The position numbers were made by a program, and so were the translations under genes. The notes below the pieces were generated by a model. The model saw only the letters and a list, made by a program, of their open reading frames with translations, did no database searches and was not told where the DNA came from. From Candidatus Thalassarchaeaceae archaeon (GTDB taxonomy: Archaea; Thermoplasmatota; Poseidoniia; Poseidoniales; Thalassarchaeaceae), in the NCBI GenBank assembly GCA_030747675.1, contig JASLKH010000036.1, forward strand, positions 1 to 26,528: a DNA stretch of 26,528 nucleotides. The letters are read 5' to 3'. Below are positions 18,217-24,768 of this stretch, in pieces. Positions within the stretch are counted from its first letter, which is position 1. Every line of letters begins with the position of its first letter.

Positions 18217-19434
18217 ATGCACTGGGACACGGGGTCTTTGATTGGGCCTGATGGAGAAGATTGGCGTGTACCAGTTTCTGAACTTGAAAAACGTCAATCA
18301 TTGTTCTCTTCATCCCTTGCAGCACAAAATATTCCAAGTGCATGGGTGCAAGATCCTGTCGATTTGTATTGGTTGGTTGGCAACCGCCAAGCAGGGGGAG
18401 TTCATGTCAAAAGTACTGGTTCAGTCACTCAATATGTACGTAATTCTCTAGAAAGGGCAATCTATGAATCTGGAGAGGGTGCTGCACCCCACCAAGTTGA
18501 AACACATCCACGGATGTCCAACTTATCTGAAACCCTTGGTGAAATTCCTGCGCTGCAACTTGGTCGTTTACCTGCATCAGATGCATTGTTCATGCAATCA
18601 AAATTGGGAGATGGTGGGGATTGCACTCAGACTCTCTGGGATTTGCGAGAGGTAAAGAGTGAATGGGAAATCAAACGAATGAAGGAAGCTGGAATGGTTC
18701 AACAATTAATGTTTGAAACCATTGACCAAATGGGGTGTGAAGGTGTAACTGAAATTGATTTAGCCGCAGCAGCGGATGAAGTCAGTCGATCCGCTGGATT
18801 CGCAGGTCACATCCGTATGAGAAAATGGCCCATGGATTGCGAGCGAGTCGTTATTGCAAGTGGAAGTGCTGGAGCTGTTCCAACATTCTTTGATTCAGCA
18901 GTTGGAGCTACTGGCCCTCATCCTTTGGCAGGTTTAGGTGCAGGATTCAAGAAAATTAGTATTGGTGAACCTGTAATTGTTGATATTGTGCATGTGCATC
19001 GAGGATATGTTTCCGATATGACAAGAATGTTTAGTGTCGGCCCGTTAGATGATATCTGGAATGAGAGATTGTCTGACATGAGTGAAATTGCAATTGCAGT
19101 CCGTGAATCCCTTGAAAGAGGTGAAGATTGTAGTTCGGCATGGAATATAGGATCGCATATGGCCACGGAAATGGGCCATGATGGACATTTGATGGGGCAG
19201 GGGCCTGATCAAGCTCGTTTCCTCGGCCATAGTATTGGATTAGAACTTGATGAAACACCGGTAGTTGCAGCTGGATTCAATCGGCCCTTACCAATTGGAG
19301 GTACTATGGCTATTGAGCCAAAAGTTATTCATCCAGACGGGGCAATTGGGGTGGAAGATTGTTGGGTTCGAACTACTGAAGGCATGGAATGTATCTCAAG
19401 TGGAGATGATTTCCCTCTCTGGACCGAGTGGTAA
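18217..19434 (+). CDS. M24 family Xaa-Pro aminopeptidase/prolidase
   Basis: Creatinase-like N-domain; REVKSEWEI; metal ligands VDIV, SDMTR, GHSIGLE, AIEP, GVED. Confidence 0.92.
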   Translation: MHWDTGSLIGPDGEDWRVPVSELEKRQSLFSSSLAAQNIPSAWVQDPVDLYWLVGNRQAGGVHVKSTGSVTQYVRNSLERAIYESGEGAAPHQVETHPRMSNLSETLGEIPALQLGRLPASDALFMQSKLGDGGDCTQTLWDLREVKSEWEIKRMKEAGMVQQLMFETIDQMGCEGVTEIDLAAAADEVSRSAGFAGHIRMRKWPMDCERVVIASGSAGAVPTFFDSAVGATGPHPLAGLGAGFKKISIGEPVIVDIVHVHRGYVSDMTRMFSVGPLDDIWNERLSDMSEIAIAVRESLERGEDCSSAWNIGSHMATEMGHDGHLMGQGPDQARFLGHSIGLELDETPVVAAGFNRPLPIGGTMAIEPKVIHPDGAIGVEDCWVRTTEGMECISSGDDFPLWTEW

Positions 19435-19478: not shown

Positions 19479-20288
19479 ATGGCGAAGCCTTGGGCCACAT
19501 CCCATATTGCAACTGTTGCCGCTGGCCTTGGTATAGAACATCGAATATCCGGTGATGTCAAGGAACAACTTGTTAAAATTCTAGAAGAGCATCTGAAAGT
19601 AGTCACGCGAGAAATGGAAGACAGAACACTCTCTGCAGAACCCGACAGAAAAACTCTCGATGATCCCAACAGAATGCGATTAGGATTTAGTCGTACAAGA
19701 GGGATGATGATTGACAACCTTGCTCGTGTTGATTCGGTAGGAGCAGCTGCAGTAGTCGCTGCAAACGAACAACTAGAAGCATATCTCCGTACATTATTGG
19801 GTTCTGCATCTAACATTGCTGCTGTTGACCGAGTTGGTACCATCAAACCCCGGCATTTGCAAAAGGCACTCGATGCAATGGGAGGCTCTGGGCCAACAGA
19901 TGAAGCAATCGAAGCCATTGCGTCATCCGAACCATCCAGAGATGCAGTAGGAGATGCTCTTGAAGGTGGAATATCTGGTGCTTTAACACCTCAATCTTTG
20001 CGACAAATGGCACGCAGCTTCTCCAATGGAAAGCGAGTTGATGATGAAGCGATTGAAGAATTAATTTTGCTCTTCTATGACCATGTTGGAGAAGTTCAAC
20101 ATGAAATGAAAAGTGGTCTGCTAGGGGGAGATCCTGCTGCATTCATTACCAAATTGGATAATTTGCAAAGTCTATTCATGTTGGGGTGGATGCGACGAAT
20201 GCTACAAAATGCCTGTAAAAGGGCGGATGCAGCAGGTAGCAAGATCGTTCTAGTCGACCATGTTCTGAATGTAGATCCTTGGAGTTGA
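19479..20288 (+). CDS. Multi-histone-fold protein (three tandem archaeal histone-like folds)
   Basis: HRISGDVKEQLVKILEE...RKTL; SVGAAAVVAANEQLEAYLRTLLGSASNIA...TIKPRHLQKAL; KRVDDEAIEEL...MLQNACKRADAAGSKIVLVDHV. Each follows the HMf alpha1-L1-alpha2-L2-(alpha3) pattern. Confidence 0.8.
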   Translation: MAKPWATSHIATVAAGLGIEHRISGDVKEQLVKILEEHLKVVTREMEDRTLSAEPDRKTLDDPNRMRLGFSRTRGMMIDNLARVDSVGAAAVVAANEQLEAYLRTLLGSASNIAAVDRVGTIKPRHLQKALDAMGGSGPTDEAIEAIASSEPSRDAVGDALEGGISGALTPQSLRQMARSFSNGKRVDDEAIEELILLFYDHVGEVQHEMKSGLLGGDPAAFITKLDNLQSLFMLGWMRRMLQNACKRADAAGSKIVLVDHVLNVDPWS

Positions 20289-20292
20289 ATGA

Positions 20293-20589
20293 ATGTCACG
20301 CGCTCAAAAGGCTGCAAAAAAAGCGCTTGCAGAAATTTTGCGGGATTGGGAAGAGCCGCACGGATCAGGTTCAATTTTAGACCAAAAATGGCTTCTTCGA
20401 TTGGAAGCTGATGAGCATGGTCACACAATGATTGAAGTTCGACCGTCCCGACCACATTGTCCTTGTTGTTTAATCGATTTGACTGATTTGAAAATAAAAG
20501 TTGAGAAACATCGTAAAATTTCTTCAATTTATATCAAAGTAGCAGATGTACCTGATGCGCATCGATGGACTGATGCCATCAACACCTGA
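20293..20589 (+). CDS. DUF59 / MIP18 (CIA2) / SufT-like Fe-S assembly domain protein
   Basis: ILRDWEEPHGSGSILD...IEVRPSRPHCPC aligns by eye with the L..V.DPE....IVD...MTLT.PGCP / PTIPHC pattern. Confidence 0.65.
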   Translation: MSRAQKAAKKALAEILRDWEEPHGSGSILDQKWLLRLEADEHGHTMIEVRPSRPHCPCCLIDLTDLKIKVEKHRKISSIYIKVADVPDAHRWTDAINT

Positions 20590-22101: not shown

Positions 22102-22194
22102 GACACCTCGCAGAGGTGGTTTGTGCTTGAACCCGCCCCTTCTGCGGCTTGTCCTGTAATCAATTCAAATACTGATTGTTTTCGTAATGACAAT

Positions 22195-24768
22195 ATGGCC
22201 GATGGGAGGTTAAGCGTCCGAAGTTTTTCTCTCTGGATTCCAATTCTTTGTGTACTCATGTTGTGCATACCATCTGCAATATACACTGGATCCTATATTA
22301 CGATGGATACGCCTGCTCCAAAAGAAGGAGTGGAGGAATCCCCTTACCCAGATGAGCGGTTAGCCGAGGGGATTCTATGGGTTGTTCTTGATGGGGTTCG
22401 AAGAGATATTATGGCTGATTCAGAATATATGCCAGGCTTGGTTGAAAAAAGCAAAGAGGGGACAATTCTTGAAGTTAAAACAGGACCACTTACAATGACT
22501 GGTTCTTGCATAAGAGAAATGGCAACAGGAGTCCAATCGAGGCCAAGCGAAGGACTCAATAATTTCCATCCGAATCATCCAGGGACGCCAGATGGTTGGA
22601 CATTAGCTAGCACATATGATTACGATAACGATAGTATCCCTGACAACATGGTCGCAATGCTTGGAGATTATGTATGGCGAGATCTAGACCCTGACCGTGA
22701 ATTAATTCCTTTCTCACAACATTACTTTGGTCACGCTGACTTTTATCGAGGAGATGAAGAAGGATACGATGTGTTAGAGGGATGGTTGACAGATAATCCA
22801 CCTGATGAGGGGAAACCGAATGTGATTGTTGCACACCTTTCAGGTCCAGATCATGTAGGACATCGATTTGGAACTAAAGGTATTGAAGAATATAAAGAAA
22901 AGATGCTATGGACTGACTCACGATTGAATACTATTTACGATATGGTTCCTGAAGATTGGGCAATAGTTGTGACATCAGATCATGGTCAAACCCCTGATGG
23001 TCGACATGGTTCCCCAGATGGGCAATTAAGAAAAGTTGCAGCAGTAATGTGGGGTCCGAATATATCTGAAGGAGTAACCATACCTGGTGTAAAACAGCGT
23101 GATTTAGCCACACTTCCATCTGCCCTACTTTCTCTACCGTTACCCCATGCTGTTGATGGACGAATACCATTAGATGCATTTGATATTTCACAAGAAAAGA
23201 AAGATGTTATCGAACAATGGAACTGGAATGCAGCTATAGCGAGAAATGAATGGTTGAAAGAAGAAGGTTGGCCATATGTGGAAGGGTTAACCGAAGAAGA
23301 AATCCAGTGGGATAAATTACCTGACGATGAACTTGGTGTGAGAAGTTCAGATATTATTCTAGCAGTAATCGCAGCGACGCTTATCACTGCGATATTCTGT
23401 TGGAGAATGGTGCGAGAAAATGTCGCTCCAGCAAATATCAAAAAATATGTTGCAGGCTTTGCTGCCGTAGGCGCTTCTTCTGCATTAATTGAGTATAACT
23501 ACCCAATATATCCCATGAGTTTTAATTTGCTAATTGGTGGTTTGGCCTCCCTATTCTTATTTGGGATGTCTTGGCGGATACTTGGGATGAATCATAGTAG
23601 GAAAACAACTTGGGAATATGATGATGCTTCAGCAGGTCATTGGAAGTATCTACTTGGGAGCACGGTCCCACTTCTATGTCTTGCAGCATTTGTCCTAATG
23701 TTTCCAAATACTAGACACTCACTTGGAGCATATGTTGTATGGGTTTCATGTTTGTTACTACTGCGTAATTACAAAGAAAATGATTTGAGTCTAAATCTTG
23801 CTGCTATCAGTTTATTTGTGCTCTGGATACCACCATTATTGTTCTCTCATGTCCGAATAATTGGGTTTGATTTGACTCGAGGGATGTTGGTTTATACTCA
23901 AATCGAAACATTGGATTTGGCAATATGGTGTGCCATTGGAGTTGGGTTTTCTGCAGGTTTAGCAACATTAATTCGAATTGGAGAATTTGATCTGAAAAGA
24001 ATTGGAATTCATGCAATGACATTTGCTTCACTGCCTATACTAATGGTGCAACAATCCAATAATGTAGATTGGATAGTTATTGGAATCGTCCTACTAGTTT
24101 TGATAATTGGAATATATCAAATCATGACCTTTGGTAAAGATACTGAGAGGTTGGTCATTACATCAGCATTAGCGTGGATGACAATGTCATGGGGTGTATG
24201 GGGGGGTTCTATTTGTCTCATTGGTTTCGCTAGTACAGAGCGATTGTTAGCGGGTCCTTGGAGCTCTATTTTGGAAAAACGTTCAGATATTCGGCAAGAG
24301 ACTGCTAGAATTGTAATGCTTGCACTACTACCCCTTACTATTTGGTATGGAATTTGGTGGACGCTGGGTCAAGTCGAAGGTTTGTCATGGGATTTCTTAT
24401 ATCCAAGAGAAATAGATCCGGGGGACATCCTCCTTCGAGGGGGTTACATTGGAGATAGATGGTCTCCAAGCAATGAATGGGTTGCATTCATGGGGGCAGG
24501 ACCAGTTATTGCTGTGATGCTGGTTATGTGGCGAACATTCCATCGTGTAGGATGGCCATTACACTTACTTGCAGCAGCATTAATCATTCGATTCTCATTT
24601 ATGTGGCTACATCTTTCATATGCTGCAGATTCCCCACGCCTTGTGTTCAAAGCAACATGGGATGCATTCTATGGAATTATTCTAGTATTGACATTAACAC
24701 CGTTTGTCATATATCAATTACTAAGACCATCAAGCAAGAATTCAGTGGAAACTGTTGAAGATGAATAG
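22195..24768 (+). CDS. Alkaline-phosphatase-superfamily membrane protein resembling GPI ethanolamine-phosphate transferases (PIG-O/PIG-G/PIG-N)
   Basis: N-terminal TM; VVLDG, LTMTGSCIREMATG, HLSGPDHVGH, TSDHG..DGRHG, QRDLATL..LL.LP.P; then a long multi-TM region. Start set at MADGR; the ORF extends to 22123. Confidence 0.8.
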   Translation: MADGRLSVRSFSLWIPILCVLMLCIPSAIYTGSYITMDTPAPKEGVEESPYPDERLAEGILWVVLDGVRRDIMADSEYMPGLVEKSKEGTILEVKTGPLTMTGSCIREMATGVQSRPSEGLNNFHPNHPGTPDGWTLASTYDYDNDSIPDNMVAMLGDYVWRDLDPDRELIPFSQHYFGHADFYRGDEEGYDVLEGWLTDNPPDEGKPNVIVAHLSGPDHVGHRFGTKGIEEYKEKMLWTDSRLNTIYDMVPEDWAIVVTSDHGQTPDGRHGSPDGQLRKVAAVMWGPNISEGVTIPGVKQRDLATLPSALLSLPLPHAVDGRIPLDAFDISQEKKDVIEQWNWNAAIARNEWLKEEGWPYVEGLTEEEIQWDKLPDDELGVRSSDIILAVIAATLITAIFCWRMVRENVAPANIKKYVAGFAAVGASSALIEYNYPIYPMSFNLLIGGLASLFLFGMSWRILGMNHSRKTTWEYDDASAGHWKYLLGSTVPLLCLAAFVLMFPNTRHSLGAYVVWVSCLLLLRNYKENDLSLNLAAISLFVLWIPPLLFSHVRIIGFDLTRGMLVYTQIETLDLAIWCAIGVGFSAGLATLIRIGEFDLKRIGIHAMTFASLPILMVQQSNNVDWIVIGIVLLVLIIGIYQIMTFGKDTERLVITSALAWMTMSWGVWGGSICLIGFASTERLLAGPWSSILEKRSDIRQETARIVMLALLPLTIWYGIWWTLGQVEGLSWDFLYPREIDPGDILLRGGYIGDRWSPSNEWVAFMGAGPVIAVMLVMWRTFHRVGWPLHLLAAALIIRFSFMWLHLSYAADSPRLVFKATWDAFYGIILVLTLTPFVIYQLLRPSSKNSVETVEDE

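Follow-up and report, generated by a model that had tools for sequence, protein, structure and literature searches.

An acidic multi-histone-fold protein of Thalassarchaeaceae: a member of a published Poseidoniales family whose chain is modelled as two histone pseudodimers

Introduction

Poseidoniales count among the most abundant archaea of the plankton, which makes the role of their only histone-fold protein a question worth asking. Thermoplasmatota, MG-II archaea included, have long been described as having lost histones (PMC4153887), and MC1, which occurs in most MG-II archaea, has been taken as the MG-II nucleoid protein (Hocher et al. 2022, PMC7613761). A stretch of 26,528 nucleotides from a Candidatus Thalassarchaeaceae archaeon (contig JASLKH010000036.1; hereafter, the window) carries a gene in which an earlier reading of the sequence, the original prediction, saw three histone folds in one chain, the third of them split by an insertion. 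What this protein is built of, whether it is new and whether it would handle DNA are the questions raised by the locus.

The survey entitled Histone diversity in the archaeal domain of life (Nat Commun 2026; bioRxiv June 2025; PMC13260811) defines a 'cluster 5, acidic quadruplets' of 130 sequences, with a median length of 262 aa, a median pI of 5.2 and four predicted histone-fold motifs. Apart from one related genome, the cluster is confined to Poseidoniales (Thalassarchaeaceae and Poseidoniaceae), and no genome that carries such a gene has a second histone gene. In the predicted models of that survey, the N-termini adopt histone-fold-dimer-like conformations within the chain and the C-termini do so between chains, and AlphaFold3 together with molecular dynamics gave neither four-helix-bundle assemblies nor DNA wrapping. 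Its authors suggest that the proteins of cluster 5 may not be DNA binders and that their function has nothing to do with compacting the genome. Poseidoniales do not appear in the main text of Schwab et al. 2024 (PMC11390915). The family and its multi-fold architecture are therefore already published and the present finding is a rediscovery, to which we add the anatomy of the C-terminal module, the patchy distribution of the gene in Thalassarchaeaceae and the occurrence of relatives outside the order.

Results

The gene occupies positions 19479..20288 of the window on the plus strand and encodes a multi-histone-fold protein of 269 aa with a pI of 5.55, as supported by the list of open reading frames, the translation, Pfam PF00808 and its homologs; the translation confirmed that the reading frame is real and that its sequence had been quoted correctly. 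For the whole protein, PF00808 (CBFD_NFYB_HMF) scored 30.9 bits against a cut-off of 21.4, with its best stretch at aa 87-131, and residues 69-139 alone scored 26.9 for PF00125 (cut-off 26.4). Taken as single sequences, the isolated first and last thirds gave no Pfam match, and a phmmer search of the PDB was uninformative for fold 1 and for the C-terminal third, so that family profiles were required to obtain PDB sequence matches for these two regions. With Pfam and these profiles, each third matched histone-fold proteins, in agreement with the three histone-fold units originally recognised in the sequence. A total of 149 homologs were found at E <= 1e-3, the full-length ones measuring about 254-295 aa and the named ones being labelled as Thalassarchaeaceae, Poseidoniaceae, Thermoplasmatota, Euryarchaeota or 'histone H3/H4'. 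Short forms of 132-201 aa (P0127, P0128, P0130, P0151 and P0153) were considered as natural, 'stand-alone' split forms and rejected, as they correspond to frameshifted nonsense tails or mid-protein starts.

The gene is a member of the published cluster 5, from which it shows no difference in kind. Both share length class and acidic pI (269 aa and 5.55 in the window against cluster medians of 262 aa and 5.2), taxon, the condition of sole histone-fold gene and an N-terminal intrachain pseudodimer. In the source data of the survey (PMC13260811), the 'Single 5' entry DAQW01000042.1_19 begins with MAKPWATSH and contains GTIKPRHL, and by reading of its sequence, not by alignment, it resembles 263-aa homologs of about 59% identity such as P0042. 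In the own genome of the window, which is 78% complete, the only other PF00808 signal lies in the lid of a Cdc48-type AAA ATPase. An overlap with a doublet family catalogued in Poseidoniia had been suspected beforehand, and a family had indeed been catalogued in Poseidoniales, but as 'acidic quadruplets' and not as doublets or triplets (PMC13260811). Three folds are recognisable by sequence and four long central helices by structure, and these four alpha2-type helices of the AF2 model match the four histone-fold motifs of cluster 5.

A full-length AF2 model was built from an alignment of 39 homologs (mean pLDDT 69, pTM 0.46). Fold 1 (aa 5-60; 19491..19658, plus strand) is modelled as alpha1-L1-alpha2-L2 without alpha3, just as had been predicted, with helices at residues 7-16 and 25-53, bridge elements at 22-23 and 59-60, R22 in L1 and K58-T59 in L2. 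Its family profile found the archaeal histone HmvA as the top match among PDB sequences (E 1.2e-3), aligned through the RKT motif. The alpha3 of fold 1 is replaced by a junction, DDPNRMRLG (aa 61-69; 19659..19685, plus strand), which leads to fold 2 and is the most conserved stretch of the protein, with a mean column conservation of 0.83 as compared to 0.66-0.67 for folds 1 and 2. Fold 2 (aa 70-133; 19686..19877, plus strand) ends in GTIKPRHLQKAL and was also predicted correctly as a complete fold: the AF2 model shows alpha1-L1-alpha2-L2-alpha3, with helices at 70-80, 89-116 and 124-133 and bridge elements at 86-87 and 121-122, in line with the Pfam match at aa 87-131 and with profile matches to H2A/H2A.Z. 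Residues 1-141 of the model superimpose on single-chain H2B-H2A, on Melbournevirus doublets and on HMk 1f1e (Z 13.4-14.8, rmsd 2.1-3.4 A, 129-143 residues aligned), which indicates that the N-terminal half is an intramolecular histone pseudodimer; residues 1-134 are thus modelled as an intramolecular histone doublet, hereafter module 1. In a separate observation, residues 5-35 of the fold-1 profile (window 19491-19583) gave a 31-residue match to the helicase domain of reverse gyrase (3p4x, 4ddt; E 0.003-0.006), which may be due to chance.

The alignment of 39 homologs contains 25 invariant columns, 24 of which fall within residues 1-126. Invariant residues comprise R22 and S24 in L1 of fold 1 and T59 in its L2, where K58 is nearly so; D62, R65, R67 and L68 in the stretch before fold 2; R72 and T73 in the surroundings of its alpha1; S86 in its L1; and T121, K123, R125 and H126 along its L2 and alpha3. 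Both the junction RKTLDDPNRMRLGFSRTRG and the GTIKPRHL stretch are nearly invariant. Most of the basic and hydroxyl residues that never vary in the family lie on the DNA-facing elements of module 1, and the invariant positions, mapped from knowledge of HMfB and H2A, coincide with the DNA contacts of canonical histone dimers. This strong conservation of DNA-contact positions contrasts with the survey, where the cluster 5 sequences are described as 'poorly conserved' (PMC13260811). The HMf contacts thought to be retained fared unequally across the 39 homologs: R22 and T59 never vary, K58 hardly does and position 255 is mostly K or R, but R186 is not conserved. In divergent relatives, R22 is replaced by Asn. 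Module 1 is not basic either, with a median net charge of -1 and a pI of 6.4 across homologs, which counts against DNA binding.

None of the folds carries a canonical RKTxxxxD clamp, a point of the original prediction that the sequence bears out. Fold 1 reads RKTLDDPN, without an Asp at position +7, fold 2 reads RVGTIKPRH, with His126 at the place of the Asp, and the C-terminal region reads GSKIVLVDH at the clamp position; the divergent relative P0164 has RKTISIED in its C-terminal half. In the AF2 model, the alpha2-alpha3 face that forms four-helix bundles is absent from one of the two folds of the dimer, as fold 1 has no alpha3.

The resemblance of fold 2 to eukaryotic H2A deserves its own comment. 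The 60 or so best PDB sequence matches of the N-terminal doublet profile, in which fold 2 is dominant, are almost all H2A or H2A.Z chains or H2A fusions (E down to 1.1e-5), and fold 2 shares with H2A an R-x-x-L-x-F...R pattern before alpha1, VGA at L1 and an identical PRHLQ. Among 1.84 billion representatives, the two matches checked from outside the family were a tandem H2A.Z (E 2.4e-5) and a hypothetical protein of Branchiostoma, 3239 aa long and without a resolved stretch. Such data could be read as a specific relationship with H2A, either by ancestry or by transfer from eukaryotes or giant viruses, the N-terminal half being then an H2B-H2A-like doublet. The margin over archaeal histones is small, however, as H2A.Z alone reaches about 21 bits against 18.4 for HmvA, and divergent members have ARHLP, GEHIE, KRHLP or AKHLE instead of PRHLQ, which indicates that PRHLQ does not go back to the ancestor of the family. 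The L..R-[IV] element ahead of alpha1 is a general feature of histone folds, the whole protein gave no Pfam match to the Histone_H2A_C domain at E up to 10, and the profiles of fold 1 against the PDB carried no H2B-specific signal. Because of the small margin and of the divergent members lacking PRHLQ, the H2A resemblance is treated as shallow, and an H2A ancestry of fold 2 was set aside as highly improbable.

Module 1 is followed by an acidic linker (aa 134-167; 19878..19979, plus strand), for which a length of about 35 aa had been rightly proposed. This stretch is predicted to be disordered (pLDDT below 50 for residues 136-167), and residues 136-168 contain 7 D+E against 1 K+R. In the 39 homologs, the linker measures 23-43 aa and has a median net charge of -7, and with a conservation of 0.30 it is the least conserved part of the protein.

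The C-terminal region, or module 2 (aa 168-269), shows in the full-length AF2 model a helix at 171-181, a bridge element at 186-187, a helix at 189-213, a loop at 214-218, a helix at 219-251, a bridge element at 256-257 and a helix at 259-263, and when folded alone with its own alignment it reached a pLDDT of 81.7 and a pTM of 0.71. Its first half (aa 171-213; 19989..20117, plus strand) is modelled as alpha1-L1-alpha2 and its second half (aa 219-263; 20133..20267, plus strand) as alpha2'-L2'-alpha3', with K255 in L2'. Between them lies the hairpin loop LLGGD (aa 214-218; 20118..20132, plus strand), non-helical in both models, whose tip is the lowest-confidence part of the domain model (pLDDT 62-68) and has a conservation of 0.44. 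The domain model contains only two bridge elements, L1 and L2', which presumably pair within the chain, and its two central helices, of 25 and 33 residues, each amount to roughly a full alpha2.

An exhaustive structural comparison of module 2 with 48,161 PDB chains gave the HMk doublet 1f1e as the best match (Z 8.8, 102/104 residues, spanning chain residues 4-149), followed by viral doublets, scH2A-H2B, Sos, SAGA doublets and DUF1931, and a search of the ESM Atlas agreed with this result. Z scores of about 8-9 are moderate for a helical domain, since helical folds can reach such values by a common arrangement, and the sequence evidence thus becomes important for this module. A profile including the divergent relatives had HmvA as the top match among PDB sequences (E 3.5e-5), and 'Archaeal histone A' was matched in two pieces: positions 3-34 of the profile cover alpha1-L1-alpha2, and positions 70-95 cover L2 and alpha3 together with the end of alpha2. 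The second half aligned by hhalign with the alpha2-L2-alpha3 of fold 2 (E 1e-4), whereas the hhalign match of the first half with fold 1 was weak, though collinear. Moreover, divergent relatives have a canonical RKTISIED or RGKKSIDVVE at L2'-alpha3'. The profile and hhalign matches, together with these motifs, indicate that the C-terminal region is histone-derived.

According to the models, module 2 is best described as a reduced doublet, in which an alpha1-L1-alpha2 half is hairpinned onto an alpha2'-L2'-alpha3' half, and its origin may have been either an insertion into one fold or a deletion within a doublet. A reduced doublet closed in the chain would also explain why the published catalogue counts four motifs. 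The proposal of a third fold split by an insert holds to the extent that the archaeal histone A matches come in two pieces about 35 residues apart, but in the models the insert of about 25 aa is part of two long helices and not a loop inside alpha2. Likewise, the idea that the insert could serve as a complementing half fold came close to the models, where a hairpin of near-full-length alpha2 helices is seen, but this hairpin presumably closes within its own chain. What did not survive is the argument that an odd number of folds would force the protein into a homodimer or towards a partner: the C-terminal domain is modelled alone with confidence and superimposes on the whole HMk doublet, so that structurally the folds do not come in an odd number and a partner is topologically unneeded. 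A co-folding prediction with two copies of module 2 scored 0.02, a value that has no bearing on dimerisation either way.

A search of sampled genomes with the full-length family profile (E <= 1e-5) found the gene in 72 of 74 genomes of one sister family and in 2/2 of another, and in only 20 of 74 of the own family, Thalassarchaeaceae, where six genera had it in none of 45 genomes at this threshold. In a 97%-complete genome of one of those genera (G023), the M24 peptidase and HCPCC genes share a 4-nt overlap, and the histone gene is absent between them. Absences in the same-genus genomes G029 and G039 were not accepted as real losses, as the adjoining M24 peptidase gene is missing too and assembly gaps are the probable cause. 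The patchy presence in the own family and the clean syntenic absence favour a dispensable role.

The conserved upstream neighbour is the M24 peptidase gene (18217..19434, plus strand; Pfam), which is also the neighbour in a 46%-identical relative, and the 44 nt that separate it from the histone ATG contain a ribosome-binding-like GGGGA motif. Downstream, a 98-aa ORF with an HCPCC motif (20293..20589, plus strand) starts 4 nt after the histone stop codon; it had no Pfam match and has an ortholog in G023 (L011 2754-3047). The M24 peptidase and HCPCC genes look like a conserved pair that may or may not enclose the histone gene. In the 46%-identical relative, an unannotated 88-aa ORF (L003 3734-4000) lies between the M24 peptidase and histone genes and abuts the histone start codon. 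Homology between the small ORFs beside the gene in the window and in a Poseidoniaceae-like contig was considered and rejected, and the 88-aa ORF is not homologous to the HCPCC ORF. Further along the window, positions 22123-24768 (plus strand) encode an 881-aa protein with N-terminal matches to phosphodiesterases, sulfatases and a metalloenzyme superfamily.

Divergent full-length relatives of about 25-30% identity and the same architecture were found in five Thermoplasmatota genomes of 3.1-4.4 Mb, belonging to two other families outside the order. Those at L014 6001-6786, L015 6001-6789 and L018 1492-2433 have 228-262 aa, are non-syntenic and show canonical RKT..ED-type motifs in L2'. Their occurrence differs from the published distribution, where the family is exclusive to Poseidoniales plus one related genome (PMC13260811). 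As for other chromatin proteins, the own genome encodes MC1 (PF05854, 81.5 bits; G000:C35:33914-34174, L021), in agreement with Hocher et al. 2022, and no Alba (PF01918) was found in its 78%-complete assembly.

Discussion

On balance, we lean slightly towards a single chain of two histone pseudodimers that would act beside MC1 as a non-wrapping, dispensable accessory protein for DNA binding or bridging. The conserved contact positions suggest that module 1 would bind DNA as one histone dimer does, through a face made of the N-termini of its alpha1 helices, of L1 of fold 1 with L2 of fold 2, and of L2 of fold 1 with L1 of fold 2. Module 2 would contribute a single L1-L2' pair within the chain, and the variable, acidic and disordered linker would join both modules, whose relative placement is not defined by a full-length model with a pTM of 0.46. 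The absence of alpha3 in fold 1, the lack of an R-D clamp in any fold and the reduced second pseudodimer speak against polymerisation of the hypernucleosome type, of which the protein is probably incapable. With regard to DNA binding, caution is called for by the acidic linker and by the near-neutral charge of module 1. Non-nucleosomal chromatin or a scaffold role, both raised in the original prediction, are possible outcomes. In any case, the useful yield is a sharper hypothesis, which combines a conserved DNA-contact ridge on the N-terminal doublet, an intrachain C-terminal hairpin and dispensability in many Thalassarchaeaceae.

Two other explanations have to be weighed against this one. The protein could be a true triplet, whose C-terminal region would be one fold with an insertion engaged in a handshake with a second chain, making it an obligate homodimer able to bridge two DNA segments. 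The C-terminal sequence does align with single archaeal histones as a lone fold into which about 35 residues are interposed, the published AF3 models obtain their C-terminal histone-fold-dimer-like conformations via interchain interactions (PMC13260811), and the tip of the hairpin is both the least confident part of the model and poorly conserved. The monomer of the C-terminal domain is, however, modelled confidently without a partner, with two bridges that presumably pair in the same chain, and its helices of 25 and 33 residues, both about as long as a complete alpha2, jointly cover the whole doublet structure, so we regard the triplet as unlikely.

A scaffold or chaperone without DNA binding, in which histone folds would have been co-opted for protein-protein contacts as in TAFs, CENP-S/X or the histone domain of Sos, agrees with the acidity of the protein, its near-neutral N-terminal module, the missing R-D clamp and the lack of alpha3 in fold 1. 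A gene that is dispensable in many relatives, in a genome with MC1 as a bona fide nucleoid protein and with metabolic or housekeeping neighbours by Pfam (M24 peptidase, PGK, CorA), would also fit such a role, which is the one suggested by the authors of the survey (PMC13260811). But the invariant residues are the canonical DNA-contact positions (the Arg of L1, the Lys-Thr of L2 and the Arg at the N-terminus of alpha1) and not a new surface, and archaea commonly have acidic histones, singlets as well as doublets, that bear a basic ridge (PMC13260811). A scaffold role thus appears possible but doubtful, and the DNA-binding or bridging chain of two pseudodimers is the reading that we retain.

Compared with known single-chain doublets (HMk 1f1e, those of halobacteria, and the H2B-H2A and H4-H3 of Marseilleviridae), the window protein is alike in residues 1-141, and its C-terminal module is like HMk. 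It differs from them in that fold 1 has no alpha3, in the long acidic linker between two pseudodimers and in the second pseudodimer, which lacks the L2-alpha3 of its first fold and the alpha1-L1 of its second. Viral histone quadruplets (Irwin & Richards 2024), as described in PMC13088155, fuse H2A-H2B-like and H3-H4-like doublets and assemble nucleosomes in E. coli. To judge from this description, they have four histone-fold motifs per chain like the window protein, whose second pair is by contrast truncated and for which the published predictions show no nucleosome-like particle (PMC13260811).

Beyond these comparisons, it is tempting, if rather speculative, to regard module 2 as a natural, self-complemented 'half histone dimer', which may derive from a doublet that lost its central L2-alpha3-alpha1-L1 or from a fold that closed again on itself, and the whole protein as a DNA-binding, non-wrapping relic of a pre-Poseidoniales Thermoplasmatota histone, kept beside MC1 and lost repeatedly. 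If this were true, swapped histone dimers and un-swapped bundles similar to AAA+ lids would be linked by an intermediate that is amenable to study. In the proposal of Alva et al. 2007 (PMC1847821), the histone fold goes back to an un-swapped ancestor, the lid (C-) domain of AAA+ proteins, and the lids of RuvBL1/2, clamp-loader delta and Lon share with module 2 a core of two helix-strand-helix units in a single chain (64-82 residues, rmsd 1.9-3.1, Z 7.4-8.3). The central helices of module 2 are, however, roughly twice as long, its sequence signal points to histones and not to AAA+ proteins, and Pfam found no AAA domain in the window protein, the resemblance to AAA+ lids being structural only.

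As a side observation, the lids of Cdc48-type AAA ATPases gave sub-threshold PF00808 matches of 19.1 bits (G000:C35:47380-47496, L001) and 15.4 bits (G029:C42, L009), and the PF00808 match of G029 was accordingly rejected as a histone. These lids are a source of false 'histone' calls, and they recall the proposed kinship between AAA+ lids and the histone fold.
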